Positions 377-12,652 are shown, counted from the first letter of the stretch. The stretch is 64,000 nucleotides of DNA from a virus (IMGVR_UViG_3300026263_000200), one strand, 5' to 3'. Notes: a model not told the origin generated them from the sequence alone. Program-made: numbers and translations.

Positions 377-488
377 GATTTTTTATGAAGATAAAGACTT
401 GGACGATTTTGAGGAAGAAGTAATCGCTGACTGTCCTGAAGAGGACACAGCAAAAGAAAAGGAAAAAACAAAAAATGAAAACGTTTAA
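360..488 (+). CDS. small acidic hypothetical protein (42 aa, not in the ORF track)
   Basis: MIKKFKIFYEDKDLDDFEEEVIADCPEE...; fills the gap between neighbours and overlaps both. Confidence 0.5.
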   Translation: MIKKFKIFYEDKDLDDFEEEVIADCPEEDTAKEKEKTKNENV

Positions 489-900
489 ACAACACATAAC
501 AGAAGACGGCAAGATGGCTGGAACAGCAACATCTAATGCAGTTGAAGATGGTAATTTAGGCGCTCATAACATTTCTGATCCAGAAGTATTAAATAGAGTT
601 AATGCTTTTGTAGGTTCTATTGCAGACGTAGAATTCATTAAACCACAACAAGCGGTAGATAGTTTGAGAGAAAAACTAAACCGTGTTGGTTTAACTGTTT
701 CTCCAGTTACAATGGAAGGAACATCAGGAAAAGTTAGTGCGAAAGTTAGTCAATTTGGTGGAAGATTTGGGAAAGATACCGACGGTTCGGATTTAAATGA
801 TGATGGAATATCACACAAAAAATCTGGCGGTCTAAATTTAGAAGTTAGTTATGAAACTTTAAAGAACGGTGCATCCAAGGTCTACGCTAAGTTAGTGTAG
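475..900 (+). CDS. hypothetical protein, possible capsid-internal protein
   Basis: N-terminus MKTFKQHITE resembles the T4 capsid-targeting sequence. Confidence 0.6.
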   Translation: MKTFKQHITEDGKMAGTATSNAVEDGNLGAHNISDPEVLNRVNAFVGSIADVEFIKPQQAVDSLREKLNRVGLTVSPVTMEGTSGKVSAKVSQFGGRFGKDTDGSDLNDDGISHKKSGGLNLEVSYETLKNGASKVYAKLV

Positions 901-905
901 GTCAA

Positions 906-1268
906 ATGTTTGAGAAAATAACCAAAGATAATTGGTTGCTTTTTGCTCAGCAAAATTATAGCAACCCTACATTGGAAACAAATGTAGAGTTTTTGGAAGA
1001 TATTAAAAGATTTAAATATCTTAAAAGGTTATTTCGCAAATATAAAACTACAGGTGAAGTTAAAATAAGATTAATTATTAATCACATTGTAGTATTACAA
1101 AATGTTTTTAGTGCAGATGTAGCGATAACTTTATTATTATTTAAGATAGATAGAGAATATTGGTCAGTATTAAAAACAGTATTGAACTATCTTAAATTAC
1201 TTTATCAACACGAACTAGGTGACGTTGATGAAGATGAAGATATAAAAGAAATGTTAAAGGAACTTTAA
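906..1268 (+). CDS. conserved T4-like phage hypothetical protein
   Basis: EDIKRFKYLKRLF...RLIINHIVVLQNVF motif recalled from marine T4-like phages. Confidence 0.65.
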   Translation: MFEKITKDNWLLFAQQNYSNPTLETNVEFLEDIKRFKYLKRLFRKYKTTGEVKIRLIINHIVVLQNVFSADVAITLLLFKIDREYWSVLKTVLNYLKLLYQHELGDVDEDEDIKEMLKEL

Positions 1269-1747
1269 TGGCTAATAGAGCAGTAGATATGTTAATAACT
1301 TACCGAGTAGTTAAACTATTGGTAACACCTTGGGAGAAGCAAGAAGCATTTAAACAAGGTATTATTGATAAGACAGGTAAAGTATTAAGACCTAATAAAA
1401 CATTAAAAACAAGTAAAGATAGGAAAGCATATACTTATTTACATAGATTTGTTTTTAATATGAAAAGACTATTTAAAAAAGTTGGATTGGGTAGTAGATT
1501 TGGTTCTTTTTTTGCTGCTATGGCAATGGTATTAAGGGAAGATAAACAGTTAATGATAAACAAAGACGCTATTGAAGCAGGTGTAGTTGAATATTTAAAA
1601 GAAACTAACCAATATGAAAATATGTTAAATGAAATAAGAGATATACCAGATATAGATGACGAACCAGTAATGACTTGTTTGGGTGTAGGTATCTATGAAC
1701 AAAATAAAAAATTAGTATCGGAGTATGAATATGCCAAAACATTATAA
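1268..1747 (+). CDS. conserved T4-like phage hypothetical protein
   Basis: YRVVKLLVTPWEKQEAFKQGIID...AYTYLHRFVFNMKR; coupled by TAATG. Confidence 0.65.
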   Translation: MANRAVDMLITYRVVKLLVTPWEKQEAFKQGIIDKTGKVLRPNKTLKTSKDRKAYTYLHRFVFNMKRLFKKVGLGSRFGSFFAAMAMVLREDKQLMINKDAIEAGVVEYLKETNQYENMLNEIRDIPDIDDEPVMTCLGVGIYEQNKKLVSEYEYAKTL

Positions 1748-2063
1748 AGATATGATGGATGAAATCATCAACAAGATTGATGAAGATGATAAAAAAGAAG
1801 TCAAAAAAGAAGACGCACCAGCAAATGCAGTAGCACACGGTGGTGTAGATATGAATCCAACTGGTAAGAAAAGAGTTATGGGTACTTTAAAAAGAAAAGT
1901 ACAAGAGAGTGATGATAACAACAATGTTGTATTGAAAGGTGTTTTTAAGGTACTAAATAAACTTGAAGATAAGATTGATGAAATAAGTGGAGTTGTAAAA
2001 GAAGAATTAAAAATTGAAACACCTAAAAGAAAAAAGACTATTAAAGAAAAAGCTAGAGTATGA
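1725..2063 (+). CDS. hypothetical protein (EDAPAN motif)
   Basis: ORF track; overlaps neighbours. Confidence 0.6.
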   Translation: MNMPKHYKDMMDEIINKIDEDDKKEVKKEDAPANAVAHGGVDMNPTGKKRVMGTLKRKVQESDDNNNVVLKGVFKVLNKLEDKIDEISGVVKEELKIETPKRKKTIKEKARV

Positions 2064-2353
2064 AAAGTTTTAAAGAATTTATAGGTACAACAGGAGTTAG
2101 AATAGGAAACTATTCAAATGTACAACCTATAGCAAGTTTAGGTGATGTACCACCTAAAAAAAGAGCAGGTGGTAAAAATGTTAGAGGTGTAGGATTACAC
2201 GCAGGTTATACAACATCAACTAATCAAAGACCATTTTTATCTGCTGATCCAAGAGTAGAACCAAAGACTAAAAAGAAAGAAAATACTATGGGTGGTATGG
2301 TTCACGTAAGAGGTGCCCAACCAACTGCTAGTATGAGAACAAGGAAAAAATAA
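2060..2353 (+). CDS. basic hypothetical protein, possible capsid-internal protein
   Basis: N-terminus MKSFKEFIG; Lys/Arg-rich. Confidence 0.6.
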   Translation: MKSFKEFIGTTGVRIGNYSNVQPIASLGDVPPKKRAGGKNVRGVGLHAGYTTSTNQRPFLSADPRVEPKTKKKENTMGGMVHVRGAQPTASMRTRKK

Positions 2354-2935
2354 ATGGAACTAATAATAAGTTTAGCAATAAAGTTTTGGATGTGGTCTAT
2401 AGTAATTTTAGTTATTATAGTAGGACTAATTATCAATTTATTTGATAAGAAGAAACCTAAATGTCATAACTTTAGTTATAAAAAAATGCCAGTAATGAGA
2501 GCTCTACCTATACGAACAAAAGGTAAAGGTTTCTTTAAGGGTATCTTAATGTGGATTCTCACTACAAGAAATTGGGAAATCGCAGAAGATTTTGACTACG
2601 AAATTAATGACGTTAAATACGTTATACCAGCAGGTTTTAAATTTGATGGTGCAAGTATACCAAAATTCTTGCATACATTTTTATCACCAGTTGGAGTACT
2701 TTTAATGGGTGGATTGGTACACGATTATGCTTATAAGTATCAGACACTATTAAAAATCAATAAGGCAGATACCCTAGGTGTTATATCTCAAAAAAGAGCA
2801 GACGAAATCTTTAGAGATATTAATATCGGAGTAAATGGTTTCTATCTTATGAACTACTTAGCATACTGGTCGTTAAGACTAGGTGGTTTTCTTGCGTGGA
2901 ACAAACACAGGAAAGTTAACGCTAAGATTAAGTAA
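2354..2935 (+). CDS. DUF1353-family membrane-anchored protein
   Basis: IPAGFKFDGASIP, VHDYAY and ADEIF motifs; N-terminal TM. Confidence 0.8.
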   Translation: MELIISLAIKFWMWSIVILVIIVGLIINLFDKKKPKCHNFSYKKMPVMRALPIRTKGKGFFKGILMWILTTRNWEIAEDFDYEINDVKYVIPAGFKFDGASIPKFLHTFLSPVGVLLMGGLVHDYAYKYQTLLKINKADTLGVISQKRADEIFRDINIGVNGFYLMNYLAYWSLRLGGFLAWNKHRKVNAKIK

Positions 2936-2952
2936 AAAAGGAGAAAAAATAA

Positions 2953-3111
2953 ATGGAGTTTATTACAGGAAGAATTAAAGAACTAACATCTTTACACGGT
3001 GGAGTATTAATCGGTTTAGGTGTTGTGGTTTTATTTTTTAGTCCACTAGCTAAAATTGCTGCTTGGGCAGCGATTGCTTACGGCGCTTGGGCTATATTAA
3101 AGAAGGACTAA
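2953..3111 (+). CDS. small two-TM protein, holin candidate (52 aa, not in the ORF track)
   Basis: RBS AAGGAG; MEFITGRIKELTSLHGGVLIGLGVVVLFFSPLAKIAAWAAIAYGAWAILKKD. Confidence 0.55.
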   Translation: MEFITGRIKELTSLHGGVLIGLGVVVLFFSPLAKIAAWAAIAYGAWAILKKD

Positions 3112-3115
3112 AACA

Positions 3116-3592
3116 ATGTTTGGCACAATGAAAATGGTTATGGTTGTAATAATGATAGGCGGACTTGCTGGAGCAGGTATGTATGTTATGAAATTACGAT
3201 CCGATAATGCTATTTTAAAAGCCAATCAAATTAAACTTGAAGAAGCGGTGAGTTCCCAAAAGGAACTCATTGCTAAACAGCAAGCAGACTTCAAAGAAAT
3301 TTTAGAAGCAAATAAAAAATTTAACGAATTAGTTACCGCTCTTAAAAAAGATATAGATGATTTAGATAATAGATTTAACAAAGGTGGAAGAGATTTTGGT
3401 AAACTTGCAATAGAAAAAACAGAAGCAATTGAAAGAATAATTAATGGCGCAAGTGATAAAGCATTAAGATGTGTTGAGATAGCAGGTGGGGCACCACTTA
3501 CTGAACAAGAACTTAACGCAACTGTAAAATCAGAAATCAATAGAGAGTGTCCGAGTATCGCTAACCCGAATTATGTACCGTATAATAATTAG
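3116..3592 (+). CDS. putative inner-membrane spanin (i-spanin)
   Basis: N-terminal TM, long coiled coil, C-terminal Cys; overlaps a downstream lipoprotein gene. Confidence 0.6.
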   Translation: MFGTMKMVMVVIMIGGLAGAGMYVMKLRSDNAILKANQIKLEEAVSSQKELIAKQQADFKEILEANKKFNELVTALKKDIDDLDNRFNKGGRDFGKLAIEKTEAIERIINGASDKALRCVEIAGGAPLTEQELNATVKSEINRECPSIANPNYVPYNN

Positions 3593-3941
3593 TATATTAG
3601 TAGTATTGTTTTTAACAAGTTGCTCAGGTGTTAAAAAGTTAAGTATCTTCAAAGAAGAAGTACCTAGACAGAAATTAGATTTAGTTAAACCTACTATGCC
3701 TGAACTAGAAAAGTTGAAATGGATTATTATTACTTCTGATAATGCAGAAGAAGTATTCCAAAAGATGGAAGCAGCAGGACTTGATCCAGTAATATTTGGT
3801 TTAAGTGATAAAGACTTCCAATTAATCGCAAAAAACTTTGCTCAAATAAGAGCACACTTGAAACACACTAATGATTTACTTGACCAATATAAAGAGTATT
3901 ATGAACCAGACGATAAGAAAAATGAAAAGGAGAAAGAGTAA
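3573..3941 (+). CDS. putative outer-membrane spanin lipoprotein (o-spanin)
   Basis: Lipobox FLTSC; Pro-containing linker; 20-nt overlap with the i-spanin candidate. Confidence 0.6.
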   Translation: MYRIIISILVVLFLTSCSGVKKLSIFKEEVPRQKLDLVKPTMPELEKLKWIIITSDNAEEVFQKMEAAGLDPVIFGLSDKDFQLIAKNFAQIRAHLKHTNDLLDQYKEYYEPDDKKNEKEKE

Positions 3942-4132
3942 TGTTTACATTTACAAGTCATAGATATGACACAAAACTAAAGAAAAAAGTTGACGAAAAG
4001 GTTAAAGCTCAAAAAATTTTAAGACCAGGACAGGAAAGTATTACAATTGTAAAACCTAAAGCGGCAGAATTATCTACTGAAGAAAAAATTGTAGAAAAGG
4101 TTAAGCCATTAATTACTACAGATAAAAAATAA
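3941..4132 (+). CDS. small basic hypothetical protein
   Basis: ORF track; TAATG coupling. Confidence 0.55.
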   Translation: MFTFTSHRYDTKLKKKVDEKVKAQKILRPGQESITIVKPKAAELSTEEKIVEKVKPLITTDKK

Positions 4133-4133
4133 A

Positions 4134-4271
4134 ATGGAAAATTGTAAGAACTGTAGTCACGAAGCACATTGTCCAGAAACTTGTTTTAAATGTGATTGTA
4201 AAAAATGTGATTGTTCAATTTGTGAGAAACCAAGACCTAATGTAAAAACAGGAGATGAAATAGTACAGTAA
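4134..4271 (+). CDS. Cys-rich metallothionein-like peptide (45 aa, not in the ORF track)
   Basis: MENCKNCSHEAHCPETCFKCDCKKCDCSICEKPRPNVKTGDEIVQ: 9 Cys and 2 His. Confidence 0.55.
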   Translation: MENCKNCSHEAHCPETCFKCDCKKCDCSICEKPRPNVKTGDEIVQ

Positions 4272-4435
4272 TGGATAGTGAAGCAGTATTAATGTTGAGT
4301 AGATTGTGGCCAATGCTAGTAGCATTTATATTATTAATAGTTACTTTAGCACAATCACACTATAGAATTAAAGTGTTGGAAGAGAAAATTAAAGTAGCAT
4401 TTGAACTTATTAATAAGTTAACAGACAAAAAATGA
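4271..4435 (+). CDS. small single-TM protein (54 aa)
   Basis: MDSEAVLMLSRLWPMLVAFILLIVTLAQSHYRIKVLEEK...; TAATG coupling. Confidence 0.55.
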   Translation: MDSEAVLMLSRLWPMLVAFILLIVTLAQSHYRIKVLEEKIKVAFELINKLTDKK

Positions 4436-4510: not shown

Positions 4511-6139
4511 CTATTTAATAGAATAACAATTAATCTTTTCTTTTTTACCTTTAACAGTACAAATACCTAGTTTATAAAACTTAAAGTCTAAATCTTTTTT
4601 AGTATTTTGAGATATTACTATTGTAGTATTGAAATCTTTACTCTTACCTTCCAATCTACTTGCCAAATTAACAGCGTCACCAATAACAGAATAATCAAAA
4701 CGTTGTTCAGACCCCATATTACCTACAAGACACTCGCCAGTATTGATACCTATACCAATGTTTAAAGGTGGGTCAAACTCTCTACTCTTATTCATCTCCT
4801 TAACTGCTCTTCTCATTTGAAATGCAGATAGTACTGCTAGTTTTTTGTGTTCTGGATTATCAAGTGGTGCATTCCAAAATGCCATTATACAATCACCCAT
4901 ATACTTATCAATAGTACCACCATTTTTTAATATTATCCCCGTCATTGCAGTTAAAAATTTGTTAACATATCTGGTAAGTTTTTCTGGATTACCTTTCATA
5001 GATTCCGATATAGGAGTAAAGCCACGTATATCAGAAAATAAAAACGTCATTTCTTTTCTTTCACCACCAAGTTTTAATAGAGATGGATTGTTTTGTAGTT
5101 TCTTAACCATATCTGGAGATAGATAGTGTTCAAATTGTTTTTTAATTTGTAGTCTTAATTTATTTTCTTTTGAATAGTTATTGTATGTTAACTGACCCCA
5201 TATAATAGAACCTATTACAAGAGGACTAAACCAATCAGTTATGATTAAGTGTTGCGTCCATAGATAAGAACTTGCAAGTGTTAAATCAAATAAGTATCCA
5301 CCAAACCATATCGCAGACCACATCACACCACATCTAGGTATAACTATGAGAAAGAATAGAGTACCTAATAATATAAAACCAAATTCAGCATATGGTAACC
5401 AATAAGGTCTACTAATAAAATTACCTGACAATAAAGTTTCTGTACTGATTGCCATAATTTCGTGTGTGTTTTTTAAACCATTAGGAGTAGTTACAAACGT
5501 AGAACCTTTGAACGTAGTACCTATGAAAACTATTTTACCTTTTACAGACGACCAATCTTTATCAGTAAAATCTATTCTAGGAATATGGTGTCTGAAATCT
5601 ATCCAAATAGTATCTTCTGCTGATGTTTTTGCATTGATAACTTTTAAGATAACTTCAGGTATAGAATTATCAAGAGGTAATTTTCTTATAGTGCCATCTA
5701 TATCAACTGGCACACTTACGTTGCCTATTGCTATTGCTTTACGTGAGATACTTTGTAGATTTTTTACTTCATCCGTTTCAGTAAGTATGACTGGATATTT
5801 TGAAATCATTTTTAAAAACATTTCATCACCACCTAATCTATCTTTATGTGGGAAGACTACTTGAAGAACTACTAGAGCGGCACCATTTTTATAAGCATTA
5901 ATTATGACACGACCAAGTAAATCTCTCTTCCACGGCCATTGCCCATTCTTTTTTAATGCTTTGTCTGATATGTCTACTAGGACTAAACTCTTTGATTCAT
6001 AATTTGTACCAAATTTTTGGTAGAAATCAAAGGTGTTTAGTTTTGCTGTTTGTAGTAGTACTGGATTTGATAAGTATATTCCAAGTAATATAATCAAAGT
6101 CAAATATACAGTCCACGATTTAGCCAATATTTTAATCAT
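4511..6139 (-). CDS. CHASE2-domain class III adenylate cyclase
   Basis: CHASE2 motifs (VDISDKALKKNGQWPWKR, DIDGTIR, GKIVFIG); three TMs; intact cyclase motifs FSDIRGFT, DKYMGDCIMAFW, GINTG, DYSVIGDAVNLASRLEG. Confidence 0.93.
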   Translation of the reverse strand: MIKILAKSWTVYLTLIILLGIYLSNPVLLQTAKLNTFDFYQKFGTNYESKSLVLVDISDKALKKNGQWPWKRDLLGRVIINAYKNGAALVVLQVVFPHKDRLGGDEMFLKMISKYPVILTETDEVKNLQSISRKAIAIGNVSVPVDIDGTIRKLPLDNSIPEVILKVINAKTSAEDTIWIDFRHHIPRIDFTDKDWSSVKGKIVFIGTTFKGSTFVTTPNGLKNTHEIMAISTETLLSGNFISRPYWLPYAEFGFILLGTLFFLIVIPRCGVMWSAIWFGGYLFDLTLASSYLWTQHLIITDWFSPLVIGSIIWGQLTYNNYSKENKLRLQIKKQFEHYLSPDMVKKLQNNPSLLKLGGERKEMTFLFSDIRGFTPISESMKGNPEKLTRYVNKFLTAMTGIILKNGGTIDKYMGDCIMAFWNAPLDNPEHKKLAVLSAFQMRRAVKEMNKSREFDPPLNIGIGINTGECLVGNMGSEQRFDYSVIGDAVNLASRLEGKSKDFNTTIVISQNTKKDLDFKFYKLGICTVKGKKEKINCYSIK

Positions 6140-6145
6140 CTAGTA

Positions 6146-6153
6146 TATTTAGT
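6146..6153 (-). promoter_or_regulatory. T4-type late promoter variant (ACTAAATA) for the cyclase
   Basis: Reverse complement of TATTTAGT; 6 nt upstream of the cyclase ATG. Confidence 0.5.
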
Positions 6154-6163
6154 ACAGATATTT

Positions 6164-6171
6164 TATAAATA
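6164..6171 (+). promoter_or_regulatory. T4 late promoter TATAAATA for the csgF-csgG operon
   Basis: Exact consensus 23 nt upstream of the csgF start. Confidence 0.75.
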
Positions 6172-6194
6172 TATACATCAACGAGAGAGAGAAA

Positions 6195-6653
6195 ATGAGA
6201 TTAATTACCATTATTTTAACAGTATTATTGTTAGGTTCTAGTGCTTATGCAAGTGAATTAGGATTTAAATTCCATAGTCCATCATTTTCTGGTAATGGAA
6301 AGTCATCACACTATCTAACGATAGAGAACATAGAGAAAACTAGAAAAGACGCTATAAAAGCAGCAAATAAAGCGGCGGCAGATAAAGCGGCGGCAGATGC
6401 TAAATCAACATCTATAGCAAAATTCAAAGCAAATATAGAGTCAAGATTTTATACTGCTCTTGCAAAACAAATTACAGACAATGTATTTGGTACTGATGGT
6501 CTTCAACAAGACTCAGGTACATTTACAAATCCAGTTGGTGGAGAAACAGTTGAGTGGACAACACCATCAGGTACAGGTAATGTCGTAGTAACTGTCACGG
6601 AGTCCGATGGAACTGTAACGACATTTACAATGCCTAAAGAGGACAATTCGTAA
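6195..6653 (+). CDS. csgF: curli assembly protein CsgF-like
   Basis: Signal peptide, then ELGFKFHSPSFSGNG resembling the CsgF N-terminal FxFxNPxFGG; directly upstream of csgG. Confidence 0.8.
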   Translation: MRLITIILTVLLLGSSAYASELGFKFHSPSFSGNGKSSHYLTIENIEKTRKDAIKAANKAAADKAAADAKSTSIAKFKANIESRFYTALAKQITDNVFGTDGLQQDSGTFTNPVGGETVEWTTPSGTGNVVVTVTESDGTVTTFTMPKEDNS

Positions 6654-7807
6654 TGTTTAAATACATAAGTATATTTTTACTAACATTATTGTTAGTTGGA
6701 TGTGCAGGTAAACCAAAGTTTGATATAAGAACTCAAACAGTTGCTTATAAAGACTTGTCAGTTATATCAGCACCGAAAGGTGAACCAATTATAATTGCTG
6801 TCTATGACTTTTTAGATATGACAGGACAAAAGAAACCTGGTGGCAACTTTGCGTCTATGAGTACAGCAGTAACTCAAGGTTCATATCAGTTGTTGATTAA
6901 AGCATTACAAGACGCAGGCGAAGGCAAATGGTTTAGAGTAGTAGAACGAGCAAGTTTACCAAGTCTATTACAAGAAAGAAAATTAATACGTTCTACAAGA
7001 CAACAAGTTAATGGAGAAGGTGCAGAACCATTACCACCATTACTATTTGCAGGTGCATATATAACAGGTGGTATTGTAGGATATGATAGTGATATTAAAT
7101 CAGGTGGTTTAGGTGCTAGAATATTAGGTATTCAAAGCAACAAACAATTTAGACAAGATATAGTTACTATTATATTAAGACTAGTCAATGTACAAACTGG
7201 TGAAGTTGTACTATCAACAACAGTTGAAAAGACTATTGTATCAACAATGACTGGTGGAGATATATTCAAGTACTTTGATACTGATACAATGTTATTAGAA
7301 GTTGAAGCAGGATATGCTAAGAACGAACCAGTTACACTTGCAGTTAGAAAAGCAATTGAAAAAGGTGTAGTTGATGTTATTAATTTAGGTGCAAATAAAG
7401 GACTATGGGAGTTTGCTGTTGAAATAGTACCAACAAAAGATTTAAAAGTAGTACAAGATGATATTACAGTTGATATGGGCGAAGTAATGCCAGAAAAAAC
7501 TTATGAAGACTTTAAGAAAGAAAAGAAAGCTAGAAAAGAATTAAAGAAAGCACAAAAACTTGAAGTAAAAAATTATAATAAAGCAAATGGAACAAAGTTT
7601 AAAACTTGGGACGAATATCAAGCACATTTAGAACATTTAGCGGCACTTGAAGCTAAAGAAATAGAAAAAGAAGAACGTAAGAACGGTATACAAGATAAAA
7701 TAACAGAAGAAGAAGAGTGGAACCAAGTAGACGAAACAGTAGAGGAGAACAAGTCAGATGAAAAAGATAGTAATGGCAATAGTGATTCTTCTAGCGACAA
7801 CAATTAA
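6653..7807 (+). CDS. csgG: curli secretion channel CsgG lipoprotein with a charged C-terminal extension
   Basis: Lipobox LVGC; AVYDFLDMTGQKKP, STAVTQG, WFRVVER, LLQERKLIRSTR, GGIVGYD, NEPVTLAVRKAIE. Confidence 0.93.
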   Translation: MFKYISIFLLTLLLVGCAGKPKFDIRTQTVAYKDLSVISAPKGEPIIIAVYDFLDMTGQKKPGGNFASMSTAVTQGSYQLLIKALQDAGEGKWFRVVERASLPSLLQERKLIRSTRQQVNGEGAEPLPPLLFAGAYITGGIVGYDSDIKSGGLGARILGIQSNKQFRQDIVTIILRLVNVQTGEVVLSTTVEKTIVSTMTGGDIFKYFDTDTMLLEVEAGYAKNEPVTLAVRKAIEKGVVDVINLGANKGLWEFAVEIVPTKDLKVVQDDITVDMGEVMPEKTYEDFKKEKKARKELKKAQKLEVKNYNKANGTKFKTWDEYQAHLEHLAALEAKEIEKEERKNGIQDKITEEEEWNQVDETVEENKSDEKDSNGNSDSSSDNN

Positions 7808-8849
7808 TTGTTTCGCAGGTAATTCAGTTTATATCCAACAAGATAATCAAGACAGCGACGGATCAATCTTTATAAAACAAGATGGTTCAGGTAATACTTT
7901 TGGGTATTCAACATCATATCCATTTAAAGTAAGTGGAGAGAACATCACAATCGTTATAAAACAAATAGGTGATAATAATAAAACAGATTATTCAAATCAC
8001 TTGACTTTTTATGGTGAGGATATGACTTTAGATTATACAGCAACTGGTGATGGTAATAAATTAAGAATAGATAGTGATGATACGGATGCTACTGGACATT
8101 ATTTAGACCACGATATTACAGGTGATTCAAATGTAGTAGATTATGATACCTGGGGAGATGATTCAACAAATTTCAATGTTGATTTAGATATTACTGGAGA
8201 CTCAAATACATTTTGGGTACAGAATAGAGGAGATAATCACTTCTTATATGTTCTTATATCAGGTGATAGTAATACCGTAGAGTGGTATAGTACAACAGAT
8301 TCAGTAGGGTTTAATACAAACTCTAACAAGGCAATTGGTCCACAATCAACATCACACGGACAGTTTGCAGACAGTTCAGGTAGTGAAGGTGCAAGTGCAG
8401 ACATTTATATTATTGGTAACTCAAATGTAATACATACTTCAACATATGGTACAGGTAACTATCAACTACACGACATTATAGGTTCTTCAAACCTTTTAGA
8501 TATACACTCTAGTTACACTGGTTCTGATACAGACCCATATGGAGACTCAATGATTATATCAGGCGATAGTAATTATTTAAGGACTTATATATCTGGTGAT
8601 AGTAATACAATAAGATTACATATGGCAGGTGGAAATAATACTGCTAAAATTTATCTTTATACAGATAGTTCAGTAATAAACTTTGCTCAAACAGGTGGTG
8701 GCAACACAGGTCAAGTTACTATATCAGGTGATTCAATTTACGATTACACATTAAACTTTTCACAAAATGGATCCGATAATTGTACATATTCGTACAACAG
8801 AAACAATCAAACAGCAGATGTAACTGCTACAGTATCAAACGGATGTTAA
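7758..8849 (+). CDS. secreted curlin-like (CsgA/CsgB-like) beta-solenoid repeat protein
   Basis: Signal peptide; many repeats of type IxQxGxxN / ITGDSN / ISGDSN / QTGGGN. Confidence 0.7.
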   Translation: MKKIVMAIVILLATTINCFAGNSVYIQQDNQDSDGSIFIKQDGSGNTFGYSTSYPFKVSGENITIVIKQIGDNNKTDYSNHLTFYGEDMTLDYTATGDGNKLRIDSDDTDATGHYLDHDITGDSNVVDYDTWGDDSTNFNVDLDITGDSNTFWVQNRGDNHFLYVLISGDSNTVEWYSTTDSVGFNTNSNKAIGPQSTSHGQFADSSGSEGASADIYIIGNSNVIHTSTYGTGNYQLHDIIGSSNLLDIHSSYTGSDTDPYGDSMIISGDSNYLRTYISGDSNTIRLHMAGGNNTAKIYLYTDSSVINFAQTGGGNTGQVTISGDSIYDYTLNFSQNGSDNCTYSYNRNNQTADVTATVSNGC

Positions 8850-11033
8850 ATGAAACTATTTCATAATCCTTGGGAAAAATGGGCGATAATAATTTGTGTT
8901 ACTGTATTATTAGTATTAGGAATATCATCAGCTAAATCTCAAATAACAAGTCCAAAAGTTGGCGAAGTCATAGGTCAAATGGGTACGACTTGGAATGAAA
9001 GAGAAGGATCAACTCAAAATACCTCAATGGGTTATGAGTTGCAGATGAATGACTTTTTACAAACAGGTGAAGATGGTGGTATGATATTATCTTATGTTGA
9101 TAATACTAAATTTACAATGGGACCAAATACAGAATTAACTATTGATGAATTTGCTTTTGATACTTCTGTTGTACCAATAGAAATTGCAATGAACATATCG
9201 GTTAATGTTGGTACATTTACATATGAATCAGGTCAAGTATCTACATTAGGTGGAGAAGTTAATATTAATGCTGGTAATGCTACAATTACAGTACAAGGTA
9301 CTGCTTTTTCAGGTACGGTAACATCTTCAGGTCAAGCAACTATTACTTTGTTGCCAGATAGTTCTGGTGCAGTAGGACAAGTAACTGTATCCAATGACGC
9401 AGGTTCTCAAACAATAACTAACGCTTACAATTCAGTAACCGTTTTATCAAATGACTTAGCACCAACACCTCCAAAAATAGAAACTAATAAACAAGATATT
9501 ATTGAGTTAGATGAATTTGAAGAAGAAATAAAAGATGAAAGTCAAAAACATTTTGGTGATATGGATTCAAAATCTGAAATGTCTAAAGAAGAATCTGAAG
9601 CACAGGAGATGGAAGAGGCAATCATAAATGAAGAAGTAAGTATAGTAGAAGATAGTAATACAATTGTTGCTACAGATTTATCAGTTGGTGAAACAGACGC
9701 AATAGTTGAAACAAAATCAGCAGAAGAAACAGCATTAGTTGAAATAGAAGAAGTTGATACATCTTATTATGACGAATGGGAAAGTGATTTAAAAGATTGG
9801 GGTTATATAGATGAAGATAACCAGATTTCAGTTTGGGATGCCGAAGGTGAAAAAACTATGGATTGGGATGACGCAAAGAAAATGTATGCAGAAATGGATC
9901 AAGCATACTTTGACGCCATTGGTTGTTCAGATTGTACTTGGGATACTATTGATTGGGATACTATTGATTGGGATGAGGTAGATTGGGATGCTTATTCTGA
10001 CAAGTATAATGAACTATTAGAAGACTATGGTTTAACTTCTTGGAATGTAGAAGTAGAAGAGCAAGATGTAGTTGAAGATACAAAAGATGAAACAGAAGTA
10101 CAAGCAATTGAAGGATATACTTGGGAAGATTTTGCTTTAGATGATGACTACTATAACAATGCAGAATACAAAGCACAAGGTGGACCTCCAACATTAACTG
10201 TACAAAACTATTGTGAGTACAATGGATACGAAGACTACTGGTGCAACCAAGACTATGTTGATTACTTAAATGACTGGTACAAAGATGACTGGACTTTAAA
10301 AGTAACCAATGATAGTTGGACTAAAGAATCTAAAAAGATATTTGGTAAATTATATGGTTGGTGTGGATCGTGGCCGAATTATAAAATGTGTGATGACCAA
10401 CCTAAACCCTGGAAGATGAAAGACTTAAAGAAGACTTACATAACTGATTGGGAGTGGGCAGATTGGGACACATATTGGGACGCATTATACGATTGGTGGT
10501 ACACAGGTTACGATTACAATAATGAAGATGATGAGACCAATTGGGAAGATGAATATTCTTATGAAGATGACTATGATATAGACGCAGAATTAGAATTATT
10601 ATTAGCAAGTTATGATGAAGAAGAGTGTTTAAAATATGGATACTATTGGGACAATGCTAATCAATCTTGTGGTAGTGAATGGGTTGATAACGAAGGTAAT
10701 GAAACTTCGGTAACTGCTAGTGGTGAAACATTAAACTACTCTACTGGAGATGTAACTCAAACTCTAACTACAACAGATGGAGTAACAGGTGCGACTTCAA
10801 GTGCAACTTCCACTGGAAGAGTATCAACATTAGGCAATGATTTTGACGCAGATTCAAGTACAAGTGGCGATTACACAATCATAAATAGATATAACGATAA
10901 TCATAGAGCATATGTAAAGACTGAAACGAGTAAAGAGGCAGATATTCAGATTTTACAAGATAAAGAAGCTCAACACCTTGACGTAGGAAATTCTTCTACA
11001 CAAAATAATATTACAGTAATACAAACGGATTAA
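8850..11033 (+). CDS. FecR-domain secreted protein with a long acidic Trp/Tyr-rich region
   Basis: Signal/TM; FecR motifs (DFLQTGEDG, DNTKFTMGPNTELTIDEF, ATITVQGTAF); C-terminal curlin-like strands (ADIQILQD, NNITVIQTD). Confidence 0.8.
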   Translation: MKLFHNPWEKWAIIICVTVLLVLGISSAKSQITSPKVGEVIGQMGTTWNEREGSTQNTSMGYELQMNDFLQTGEDGGMILSYVDNTKFTMGPNTELTIDEFAFDTSVVPIEIAMNISVNVGTFTYESGQVSTLGGEVNINAGNATITVQGTAFSGTVTSSGQATITLLPDSSGAVGQVTVSNDAGSQTITNAYNSVTVLSNDLAPTPPKIETNKQDIIELDEFEEEIKDESQKHFGDMDSKSEMSKEESEAQEMEEAIINEEVSIVEDSNTIVATDLSVGETDAIVETKSAEETALVEIEEVDTSYYDEWESDLKDWGYIDEDNQISVWDAEGEKTMDWDDAKKMYAEMDQAYFDAIGCSDCTWDTIDWDTIDWDEVDWDAYSDKYNELLEDYGLTSWNVEVEEQDVVEDTKDETEVQAIEGYTWEDFALDDDYYNNAEYKAQGGPPTLTVQNYCEYNGYEDYWCNQDYVDYLNDWYKDDWTLKVTNDSWTKESKKIFGKLYGWCGSWPNYKMCDDQPKPWKMKDLKKTYITDWEWADWDTYWDALYDWWYTGYDYNNEDDETNWEDEYSYEDDYDIDAELELLLASYDEEECLKYGYYWDNANQSCGSEWVDNEGNETSVTASGETLNYSTGDVTQTLTTTDGVTGATSSATSTGRVSTLGNDFDADSSTSGDYTIINRYNDNHRAYVKTETSKEADIQILQDKEAQHLDVGNSSTQNNITVIQTD
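9939..9989 (+). repeat. 15-nt coding tandem repeat (WDTID)n
   Basis: TGGGATACTATTGAT x2, then TGGGATGAGGTAGAT and TGGGAT. Confidence 0.8.
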
Positions 11034-11035
11034 AT

Positions 11036-11128
11036 ATGGACTACGGAACTATCACTCTATTCTTAATATTTGGAATACTTATCTATATGAATTGGTCTAT
11101 TTACAGATGGATAGATAGAGAATTTTAA
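11036..11128 (+). CDS. small TM peptide (30 aa)
   Basis: MDYGTITLFLIFGILIYMNWSIYRWIDREF; coupled to the next gene. Confidence 0.45.
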   Translation: MDYGTITLFLIFGILIYMNWSIYRWIDREF

Positions 11129-11541
11129 TGCCTGATTTACAAGTAGATATAGCAAAACTCAAAAAAGACATAGAACAAGTCAATAATATCAATATACGTT
11201 TAGACACAGCAATAGACAAATTAACAGATGTATCAACATCTATTAAGTCTATGTTGGCGGTACACTCCGAAAAGATTGCTAGACAAGAACAAGTTGATGA
11301 AATTATATTTGAAAAATTGAAAGAAAGAGCAGGTGAAATTGACAATGTACATAGAGAATTAACTAGAGAAATAGAACAAAGTGAAAGACGTTTATTATTA
11401 GAAATTAAAGCAATAAGAAACGATATTGGTGCTAGAGTTGGTATGTTAGAAAAATATAGATGGATTATATTAGGTGCTGCTATAGTAATAGGATGGATAG
11501 TATCTGGCAATTTCTCCGAAATTGTTAGGATGATGAGCTAA
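11128..11541 (+). CDS. coiled-coil protein with a C-terminal TM
   Basis: Heptads followed by LEKYRWIILGAAIVIGWIV. Confidence 0.7.
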   Translation: MPDLQVDIAKLKKDIEQVNNINIRLDTAIDKLTDVSTSIKSMLAVHSEKIARQEQVDEIIFEKLKERAGEIDNVHRELTREIEQSERRLLLEIKAIRNDIGARVGMLEKYRWIILGAAIVIGWIVSGNFSEIVRMMS

Positions 11542-11563
11542 TAGGATACTCGTAGGTTTTACC

Positions 11564-11590
11564 CCTGGAAAACACCCAGGCATTTTTTTT
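11564..11590 (+). terminator. probable Rho-independent terminator
   Basis: CCTGG-N7-CCAGG followed by CA and T8. Confidence 0.55.
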
Positions 11591-11614
11591 GTTCAGGACC
11601 TTTTTCGTACAGAC

Positions 11615-11643
11615 TTGACTATTTTCGTGAAATGGTGTATATT
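11615..11643 (+). promoter_or_regulatory. sigma70-type promoter for the primase-nrd operon
   Basis: TTGACT-N17-TATATT. Confidence 0.7.
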
Positions 11644-11656
11644 ATGAGATAGTGTT

Positions 11657-12652
11657 ATGTCAAGTTTTATAGATTTAAAGTATATTAATGCTATCTCTTC
11701 AGCATTAAGTCAGTTTAAAAAGAAGACAGATTATCTTTTCAATTTCAGGTGTCCACATTGTGGAGACTCGCAGAAGAGTAAGACTAAAGCAAGAGCATAT
11801 CTTTATAGAGTAAAAAATGATATGTTCTTTAAATGCCACAATTGTGGTATGGGTCAGAATTTAGCAAATTTCATTAAATTCTTGGATCCTAAAAAATACG
11901 GAGAATACTTATTAGAGAGATACAAAGGATCGGCACCTTCCACGCCCCAACCTAAATTTGACTTTAAACCCACAAAATTTAAAGAAACAAATTTACTAGA
12001 TTCTTGTATTAAAGTAAGTACGTTAAAAGACGGACATCCTGTAAAGGAGTACGTAAAGAAAAGATTGATACCTCCACAATATTATGATATAATTTATTTT
12101 GTTGACAAATTTCATAATTTTGCCAATAAAGTGAAACCAGGAACTTTTAAAGAAAAATATGAACACCCTAGATTAATTATTCCTTTCTTTGATGTAACTG
12201 GTAAGTTGTTTGCATTTCAAGGCAGAGCATTTGGAAAAGAACAACCAAAATATATTACTATTAAACTTGATGAATCAAAACAAAAAGTATATGGACTTGA
12301 ACGTGTAAATTATCAAAAACATATTTACATAGTTGAAGGTCCACTTGATAGTTTGTTTTTAGATAATTGTTTAGCAGCAGGTGGTGCTGACTTAACATTG
12401 AGAGTGTCAAGTGACCAAGTTACATATATATTTGACAACGAACCTCGTAATAAAGAAATCATAAAAAGGATGTACGCAGTAGTTGAAAAGGATTATAATG
12501 TAGTAGTCTGGCCAAATGATGTGCAACTTAAAGATGTAAATGAAATGATAATGAATGGAATGAAAATAAGTGAACTAAAAGATATCATAAGTAATAATAC
12601 ATTTAGCAAATTAGAGGCATTAACGAAATTAAACTATTATAAAAAATGTTAG
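11657..12652 (+). CDS. gp61: DNA primase (T4 gp61-like)
   Basis: Zn finger FRCPHCGDSQKSKTKAR...CHNCG; TOPRIM motifs IVEGPLDSLF and FDNEPRN. Confidence 0.95.
   Translation: MSSFIDLKYINAISSALSQFKKKTDYLFNFRCPHCGDSQKSKTKARAYLYRVKNDMFFKCHNCGMGQNLANFIKFLDPKKYGEYLLERYKGSAPSTPQPKFDFKPTKFKETNLLDSCIKVSTLKDGHPVKEYVKKRLIPPQYYDIIYFVDKFHNFANKVKPGTFKEKYEHPRLIIPFFDVTGKLFAFQGRAFGKEQPKYITIKLDESKQKVYGLERVNYQKHIYIVEGPLDSLFLDNCLAAGGADLTLRVSSDQVTYIFDNEPRNKEIIKRMYAVVEKDYNVVVWPNDVQLKDVNEMIMNGMKISELKDIISNNTFSKLEALTKLNYYKKC

Follow-up and report, generated by a model that had tools for sequence, protein, structure and literature searches.

A phage module joining a curli-type channel, a FecR-domain protein and a CHASE2 adenylate cyclase: a candidate transmembrane signalling system

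The viral sequence IMGVR_UViG_3300026263_000200 was analysed as a window of 64,000 nucleotides (nt), i.e., the whole stretch of DNA, which has ~31% G+C and carries nearly all of its long open reading frames (ORFs) on the plus strand. Here, we focus on a cluster of five genes at 4511–11033 that combines the components of a curli-type channel with a FecR-domain protein and a membrane-bound adenylate cyclase, and that may, we tentatively propose, convert the state of the cell envelope into cyclic AMP (cAMP) late in infection. ORF calling placed the five genes at exactly the coordinates given by a first-pass annotation, which a model had made from the sequence: the cyclase on the minus strand and, on the plus strand, csgF, csgG, a curlin-like solenoid gene, and a FecR-domain gene, these four abutting or overlapping one another. 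Domains or folds were assigned to all five, and we regard their identities as close to certain. As the same annotation had stated, csgC, csgD, and csgE are missing: none fits among the five abutting ORFs. The surroundings are those of a T4-like myophage, with primase and ribonucleotide reductase genes downstream of the module (Pfam, phrog), TATAAATA promoters, and Kyanoviridae phages as the closest named relatives. The clustering of csgF, csgG, a curlin-repeat gene, a FecR-domain gene, and an adenylate cyclase gene, in synteny with 158 viral contigs as well as the phages HTVC008M and Melnitz, identifies the locus as a rearranged member of the published pelagiphage module, in which a type VIII secretion system (T8SS) is found with FecR and a cyclase.

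The minus-strand gene (4511..6139) encodes a CHASE2-transmembrane-class III adenylate cyclase of 542 amino acids (aa), built by a CHASE2 domain (~nt 5360–6097), a transmembrane block (~5186–5401), and a catalytic domain (~4517–5056). Pfam recognizes CHASE2 at aa 15–260 (E = 1.2e-27) and Guanylate_cyc at aa 362–541 (E = 6.8e-25), while hydropathy and translation reveal an N-terminal transmembrane segment and a hydrophobic block at aa 247–318, after the CHASE2 domain. All six class III catalytic residues are in place (D370, K412, D416, T467, N491, and R495), including the lysine and threonine that form the ATP-specifying pair of class IIIb cyclases, as in CyaB. The best solved relatives are likewise adenylate cyclases, namely 6fht (E = 1e-35) and Pseudomonas aeruginosa CyaB (3r5g, E = 2e-33). 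Judged by its domain matches and catalytic residues, the enzyme looks intact, as had been claimed. A separate observation concerns the Melnitz-type cyclases (e.g., L002:8935-10986, L180:14066-16114, and L197:14296-16350), which carry Ser in place of the catalytic Asn and an altered IKYIGDASMHIHNAP motif, and which keep a ~70-aa C-terminal extension common to bacterial homologues and missing in the window type. From these sequence differences, their activity may differ.

The first two plus-strand genes encode the channel components. csgF (6195..6653) specifies a 152-aa protein with a signal peptide that matches the Pfam CsgF profile over positions 5–132 of 132 (E = 1.8e-12) and phrog_35372 (E = 8e-36). 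Its mature N-terminus, SELGFKFHSPSFSGNG in translation, has the character of an N-terminal CsgG-binding peptide; a direct comparison with E. coli CsgF gives a weak match (E = 0.89) covering residues 5–42. csgG (6653..7807) encodes a 384-aa lipoprotein (Pfam CsgG, E = 1.4e-49) made of a core (aa 1–256) and an extension (aa 257–384). The protein aligns with E. coli CsgG over residues 8–260 (E = 3e-49), with the lipobox cysteine in register (LLVGC versus LLSGC). The constriction loop, in which the E. coli protein has Tyr, Asn, and Phe, differs from that of E. coli, the two aligning only with a gap (KPGGNFASM versus KPYP-ASNF) and with a shifted N-F pair. The 128-aa C-terminal extension (nt 7421–7804) is first Lys/Glu-rich and then Ser/Asp/Asn-rich. 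HTVC008M and Melnitz lack it, and its length differs from relative to relative, with CsgG ORFs of 305–474 aa. In E. coli, the C-terminus of CsgG faces the periplasm.

The next gene (7758..8849, plus strand), which overlaps csgG by 50 nt, encodes a 363-aa protein with a signal peptide that is, by its repeats and predicted fold, a CsgA-like curlin solenoid. Four lines of evidence lead to this assignment. In the family alignment, an invariant G-x-x-N recurs every ~22–25 residues, giving ~12 repeats followed by a C-terminal Cys pair; Curlin_rpt matches 9 of 21 family members; the family profile matches E. coli CsgA (8enq) with E = 2.2e-4; and the AlphaFold2 (AF2) model (predicted TM-score, pTM, 0.75) has its closest fold in Pontibacter CsgA (8c50, Z = 24.8, the next match scoring 18.8), with 284 residues aligned at 22% identity. 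The single sequence has no Pfam match, with Curlin_rpt falling below threshold, and a Foldseek search with the model returned nothing significant, CsgA being found only by a wide VIA search. In every locus mapped, a solenoid gene with a signal peptide adjoins csgG.

The last gene (8850..11033, plus strand) encodes a 727-aa FecR-domain protein, recognized by the Pfam FecR matches of its relatives, its AF2 fold, and its similarity to a Melnitz protein. It consists of a signal peptide (aa 1–33), a FecR beta-sandwich (aa 34–210; nt 8949–9479), an acidic disordered linker (aa 211–300) with 34% Asp plus Glu, an acidic, Trp/Tyr/Cys-rich domain (aa 301–600) with four close Cys pairs, and a beta-rich C-terminal part (aa 601–727; nt 10650–11030) that ends in NNITVIQTD. 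The signal peptides of relatives have A-x-A-like cleavage sites, and the Cys pairs suggest an oxidising compartment. Searched alone, the protein has no Pfam match. Of 25 family members, 17 are matched by Pfam FecR, the N-terminus shares 29% identity with the FecR protein of Melnitz (E = 2e-19), and residues 65–210 of the model superimpose on PupR (6ovk) with Z = 15.5 and a root-mean-square deviation of 2.1 Å over 128 residues; BDI_1681 (4m0n) follows with Z = 15.3. A further resemblance, between residues 34–131 of the model and 5ix9, a cell-surface anchoring domain (Z = 7.7, 74 of 76 residues), is a lead and not evidence. An ESM Atlas search with residues 300–727 gave no usable match. The final strand, (I/V)T(I/V)IQ(T/I)(D/N/K) (..ITIIQTD), is conserved both in the long forms and in the 370-aa forms of HTVC008M and Melnitz. 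The tail had been called curlin-like, a description that survives as a conserved C-terminal strand motif but not as homology to curlin (profile-profile P ~0.2). A fusion of FecR with a second curlin was rejected as the origin of the long form: the match to the second curlin of Melnitz has E = 0.23, and the extra length is the acidic Cys/Trp-rich insert. The protein does not have the architecture of a FecR-type anti-sigma factor, as the FecR domain comes directly after the signal peptide and there is neither a cytoplasmic anti-sigma domain nor a transmembrane anchor. In related genomes (two complete ones of 177 and 171 kb, HTVC008M, and Melnitz), no TonB-dependent receptor was found, nor any extracytoplasmic function sigma factor beyond one weak ~190-aa match far from the module.

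The cyclase and csgF genes diverge from a 55-nt spacer (6140–6194), and the statement that this spacer holds late promoters was borne out, with one canonical element and one candidate variant. On the plus strand, an exact T4-type late promoter, TATAAATA, lies at 6164..6171, 23 nt upstream of the csgF ATG; of 56 distinct related sequences, 47 have the same element in the 80 nt preceding csgF, compared with a 1% background rate. On the cyclase side (minus strand), TATAAATA was not found in the spacer and only CTAAATA is present, at 6146..6152, 6 nt before the cyclase ATG, where it is a candidate variant late promoter that would yield a near-leaderless mRNA. The element is conserved: of 37 distinct relatives, 34 have (A/G)(A/C)CTAAATA 5–6 nt before the cyclase ATG, whichever of the two gene arrangements they follow, and HTVC008M and Melnitz have it as well. 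TAAATA has a background rate of 4.9% per 80 nt. CTAAATA is also the late-promoter consensus of the T4-like phage Aeh1 (PMC1524935). Each of the related genomes encodes one protein of ~190 aa with a weak Sigma70_r2 match, which we read as a gp55-like late sigma factor. Because both elements are conserved and relatives have a candidate sigma factor, late expression of both transcription units is likely, as far as sequence can tell. Scans for sigma-70 promoters and terminators gave results at chance level. In loci where the FecR and cyclase genes lie on the same strand (L013:14190-14215 and others), the FecR stop codon is the TAA inside a conserved GACTAAATA before the cyclase ATG, so that the end of the FecR gene (..IQTD*) overlaps the cyclase promoter; this junction appears to be a recombination boundary.

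We surveyed the module in two IMG/VR scans and counted as informative those loci in which both flanks were covered. The first scan, based on CsgG, mapped the five families onto the loci of the best 80 of 297 relatives, and the second, seeded with a short-type CsgG, returned >590 relatives; both yielded loci in a myophage context only. Window-type modules have the cyclase in 58 of 58 informative loci, divergent upstream in 33 and downstream of FecR on the same strand in 25. In the HTVC008M/Melnitz type, it is present in all 37 informative loci, in the order csgF-csgG-curlin-FecR-curlin-(0 to 3.4 kb)-cyclase. Taken together, each of the 95 informative viral contigs has a CHASE2 cyclase next to or near its csg and FecR genes, in one of two arrangements, which is a new observation; the independent distribution of cyclase and csg genes, named beforehand as grounds for abandoning the signalling idea, was not seen. 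Some lineages place 3.4 kb of other genes between the module and the cyclase. One abundant lineage (L242:11098-14561) has eight small genes, including one for an Fe-type superoxide dismutase, between the second curlin and the CHASE2 cyclase, and genes for HSP20, ClpS, heme oxygenase, and bilin reductase upstream of csgF.

In trees of the cyclase and of CHASE2, the divergent arrangement forms one clade and needs one change (SH-aLRT 88), whereas the arrangement label changes 5 times on the CsgF + CsgG tree (at least 3 of them forced by well-supported branches), 8 times on the curlin tree, and 7 times on each of two FecR trees. The cyclase was relocated once, and alleles of csgFG, curlin, and FecR were reassorted against it at least three times, without its ever being lost. 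Pairwise distance matrices for 30 loci, whose values may also be shaped by recombination and physical linkage, correlate the FecR N-domain with CsgG (r = 0.84), CsgF (r = 0.73), and curlin (r = 0.72). The first of these values supports a functional link between FecR and CsgG and fits a channel-associated role for the FecR protein. Given the discordance of the trees and the weak correlation of FecR with CHASE2 (see below), the cyclase behaves as a cassette that is obligatory and yet can be exchanged, with the FecR protein travelling along with the channel. Allele-specific co-inheritance of FecR and CHASE2 was not found. As a side observation, curlin was the least congruent part of the module in 14 divergent-cyclase loci (r ~0.3 to every other part), which suggests rapid diversification or frequent exchange of a presumably surface-exposed curlin.

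Among cellular proteins, the nearest relatives of the cyclase come mostly from Alphaproteobacteria, with 28–33% identity over the full length. Hidden Markov models derived from the phage proteins detected a FecR-like ORF within 10 kb in 29 of 51 bacterial loci with 5-kb flanks, directly adjacent in 12, and Pfam FecR confirmed it in five; the earlier statement that FecR proteins sit beside bacterial CHASE2 cyclases therefore stands. By contrast, the outer-membrane barrel expected as a usual neighbour proved uncommon in this sample, with OEP twice and DUF481 twice among 130 ORFs. That link rests on literature for Sinorhizobium meliloti, whose CHASE2 cyclases (CyaD1/CyaD2/CyaK) need the outer-membrane barrel NsrA, according to the passage of PMC13001267 that cites Garnerone 2018. 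Other neighbours include a FecR + TPR protein in Rhizobium, cNMP (cyclic nucleotide monophosphate)-binding proteins (5 of the 130 ORFs), and, in some loci, a phosphodiesterase (HD). csgG, csgF, and curlin were found in 0 of 80 bacterial cyclase loci, and CsgG is absent genome-wide in five of these genomes. In turn, none of seven alphaproteobacterial csgF-csgG-curlin loci has a FecR gene or a CHASE2 cyclase within 9 kb. The phage module therefore looks chimeric, joining two units that are separate in the sampled bacteria.

A related bacterial arrangement deserves mention in its own right. Contigs of Bradyrhizobium and Methylobacterium (L093:3446-12172, L107:2130-15250, and L140:6024-12121) encode a BTLCP (LapG-like) protease, a giant FecR protein, and a CHASE2 adenylate cyclase. 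The giant protein (1200–2100 aa) has an N-terminal FecR domain, cadherin-like/Big_9 repeats, and RTX or serralysin-C motifs, and the L107 cluster also contains HlyD and ABC genes for type I secretion. In the literature searched, we found no paper linking FecR to retention modules or BTLCP; the finding draws attention to a so far undescribed class of surface proteins in bacteria that have FecR at the N-terminus and are encoded beside CHASE2 cyclases.

The gene set itself has been described before. Curli genes were reported in pelagimyophages in 2020 (Zaragoza-Solas et al., PMC7029224) and in the OM43 phage Melnitz in 2022 (Buchholz et al., PMC9004378), in neither case with mention of a cyclase or FecR. 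Also in 2022, the complete cluster, FecR and adenylate cyclase included, was described by Wittmers et al. (PMC9599517) from both podophages and myophages, with a histidine kinase in the former. They argued for selection on the whole cluster, took FecR for a regulator of iron, and interpreted the cyclase through an analogy to CsgD control. The first-pass annotation was correct that curli genes were known from SAR11 myophages, but it understated prior work, as FecR and the cyclase had already been published as parts of such clusters. The term CHASE2 does not occur in PMC9599517, transmembrane segments go unmentioned there, and no reading of these clusters as containing a periplasmic FecR-CHASE2 sensor pair was found in the literature searched. 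What is new here is the constant presence of the CHASE2 cyclase, the bacterial comparison, the co-inheritance data, and the lack of a cAMP-binding domain in four related phage genomes. A histidine kinase in myophage relatives was a candidate we dropped: no HATPase_c kinase was found in the two complete relatives, HTVC008M, or Melnitz. In bacteria, CHASE2 kinases are paired with LysM-FecR proteins in Burkholderia (PMC5192318), and in Campylobacterota a CHASE2 cyclase is clustered with a FecR protein and with a TPR protein (PMC9239204). The FecR fold, represented by PupR, is according to the title of entry 6ovk a periplasmic domain that docks on the periplasmic domain of an outer-membrane protein.

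The explanation that we favour, and hold only tentatively, is that the module provides a late curli-type channel, a FecR protein associated with it, and a CHASE2 cyclase that turns the state of the envelope or periplasm into cAMP. It would operate as two units. (i) The first, csgF-csgG with the CsgA-like curlin, would be expressed from the T4-type late promoter. Once exported by Sec, CsgF and the lipoprotein CsgG would form a channel in the outer membrane, through which the 363-aa solenoid protein would leave. (ii) The second would comprise the Sec-exported FecR-fold protein and the inner-membrane CHASE2 adenylate cyclase with its own CTAAATA promoter, and would correspond to what recurs in bacteria as a periplasmic partner-and-sensor pair. 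Via its conserved C-terminal beta tail, the FecR protein may be attached to, or lie partly inside, the CsgG/CsgF channel or the growing fibre; its N-terminal FecR domain could then inform the periplasmic CHASE2 domain about the state of channel, fibre, or surface, and CHASE2 would switch cytoplasmic cAMP synthesis late in infection. The target of cAMP would have to be host-encoded or of another type. Curlin secretion, the location of the FecR protein, its contact with CHASE2, the signal, and the effect of cAMP are all things we infer. The coupling to signalling is, by our estimate, plausible but rather less than an even bet, and lysis timing, superinfection sensing, and aggregation are speculation as to what it might serve.

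Several findings weigh against this explanation. Contact between FecR and CHASE2 is putative, the indirect evidence for it being gene neighbourhood and weak covariation: the arrangement needs seven changes on the FecR trees versus one on the CHASE2 tree, and distances of the FecR N-domain and CHASE2 correlate with r = 0.36 only, and with r = 0.32 where the genes abut, which gives no support for an allele-specific interface. The window-type CHASE2 is reduced by two deletions and is shorter than those of HTVC008M, Melnitz, and Bradyrhizobium. Since the Melnitz-type cyclase has Ser at the catalytic transition-state Asn position (GDSVSTAARIE versus GDAVNLASRLE), cAMP output may not be universal. 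The FecR tail resembles a curlin strand, yet homology of the two was not supported (hhalign P 0.2–0.24), and the module lacks a CsgE-like factor. No cNMP-binding domain (PF00027) was found in the two complete relatives (177 and 171 kb), one 33%-complete contig, HTVC008M, or Melnitz, so that these related genomes offer no candidate for a phage-encoded cAMP receptor. Finally, aggregation was not observed in cultures of Melnitz (PMC9004378).

Two more specific versions of the same explanation can be formulated, each of which we consider doubtful. The FecR protein could be threaded through CsgG, which seems improbable. Improbable to the same degree is that the protein acts as a trans-envelope outside-in sensor, held in the CsgG/CsgF channel with its N-terminal FecR domain in the periplasm against CHASE2 and its acidic linker and C-terminal part at the surface or on the curlin fibre. 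Upon contact, superinfection by another phage, or assembly of the fibre, the surface part would be pulled on, capped, or lost, and this would switch the synthesis of cAMP. The Bradyrhizobium-type clusters with type I secretion (T1SS) genes would be the cellular counterpart of such a sensor, with the FecR domain serving as the periplasmic retention module of LapA-like adhesins.

The strongest competitor, though we think it unlikely, broadly follows the published view, in which making curli-like fibres is all that the module does, whether these serve aggregation ("sibling capture") or act as a superinfection shield. On this view, the FecR protein would be a structural accessory, which could, e.g., nucleate or anchor the fibre as CsgB does or take the place of CsgE, and the cyclase would be a constitutive host-reprogramming enzyme that is merely co-expressed. 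Both PMC7029224 and PMC9599517 propose aggregation or a shield, with regulatory roles for FecR or cyclase given by analogy alone. The clear CsgA-like fold of the solenoid suits such fibres, as does a conserved FecR C-terminal strand of a kind that could dock by beta-strand addition, and the co-inheritance data are easily accommodated, as FecR goes with CsgG/CsgF and not with the exchangeable cyclase cassette. However, it is a cyclase with a periplasmic CHASE2 sensor domain, not a soluble cyclase, that is kept in 95 of 95 loci; the pairing of FecR and CHASE2 recurs in bacteria without curli genes; and the missing aggregation in Melnitz cultures (PMC9004378) tells against clumping by fibres as well.

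Less probable again is that the cyclase is an independent cassette, used for host takeover via CRP, interference with nucleotide-based defence, or draining of ATP, and found beside the curli genes only through a shared hypervariable island. Its own promoter, a phylogeny at odds with that of the other module genes, the unrelated genes (up to 3.4 kb) that can lie in between, and the presence of adenylate cyclases in unrelated phages (Acinetobacter phage matches) all speak for autonomy. Against this, the cyclase is missing from 0 of 95 informative loci. It also remains adjacent after relocation to the other side and strand, its bacterial family has FecR neighbours, FecR is its travelling companion in phages, and the cluster moved between podophages and myophages as a unit (PMC9599517). 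Least likely of all is a repurposed outer-membrane pore, i.e., CsgG/CsgF as a pinholin- or secretin-like lysis timer or an uptake channel with the repeat and FecR proteins as gates or plugs, as proposed in PMC9004378 and PMC7029224 and in keeping with the lack of a CsgE gate, a constriction loop unlike that of E. coli, and likely late expression, for a full-length CsgA-like solenoid with a signal peptide beside csgG in every locus speaks for ordinary substrate secretion, and a pore alone leaves the cyclase unexplained.

These modules are very common in ocean viromes, with >590 relatives of CsgG in IMG/VR and clusters of FecR proteins numbering at least 4900, and T8SS clusters were found at all 65 GOV2 stations (PMC9599517). 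Three papers call their function a mystery. Reading FecR and CHASE2 as a bacterial sensor pair grafted onto a phage curli channel turns that mystery into testable questions. If the reading is right, a lytic phage of streamlined marine bacteria would sense its envelope or surroundings late in infection and answer with cAMP.

Outside the module, the ORFs upstream (475–4435) have DUF7207 and DUF1353 as their sole domain matches. Downstream, at 11128–12652, the primase region is split into two ORFs 115 nt apart: one of 137 aa (DUF7201; phrog_451 positions 7–108) and one of 331 aa (DNA primase; phrog_451 positions 132–460), with a terminator-like hairpin at 11564–11580 inside the 115-nt gap.

Among known systems, the pelagiphage T8SS clusters are the most similar, having the same five families in marine T4-like phages, lacking CsgE, CsgC, and CsgD, and occupying a variable region beside replication genes. 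HTVC008M and Melnitz share the order csgF-csgG-curlin-FecR-curlin-cyclase. Compared with them, the window-type cyclase is inverted and divergent from csgF, and there is one curlin gene instead of two. The window FecR protein measures 727 versus ~370 aa due to its acidic Cys/Trp-rich insert, CsgG carries the 128-aa charged tail, and CHASE2 is shortened; the identities of the window proteins to those of the cultured phages are only 29–46%.

The bacterial FecR-CHASE2 pairs resemble the second half of the module, in that an exported FecR-fold protein is encoded beside an inner-membrane CHASE2 protein with a cytoplasmic output domain. Unlike the phage module, they come without csgG, csgF, or curlin, their FecR proteins carry LysM, TPR, or cadherin and RTX modules, and some have cNMP-binding or phosphodiesterase (HD) neighbours, which the phages lack. 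The first half resembles the curli systems of E. coli and alphaproteobacteria, with a CsgG lipoprotein core, a CsgF that carries both a signal peptide and the N-terminal stretch F-x-F-x-x-P-x-F-x-G-N, and a G-x-x-N beta-solenoid as substrate. The window differs in lacking CsgE, CsgC, and CsgD, in its altered CsgG loop, and in a 363-aa solenoid of ~12 repeats with a terminal Cys pair; moreover, the FecR protein and cyclase attached in the phage are absent from the seven alphaproteobacterial loci sampled. Lastly, FecIRA/PupIRB surface signalling uses the same periplasmic fold (PupR), which there relays a signal from an outer-membrane protein. The phage protein differs in having no anti-sigma domain or membrane anchor, only a cleavable-looking signal peptide, and in related phages that lack a TonB-dependent transducer; its output would be cAMP instead of the release of a sigma factor.

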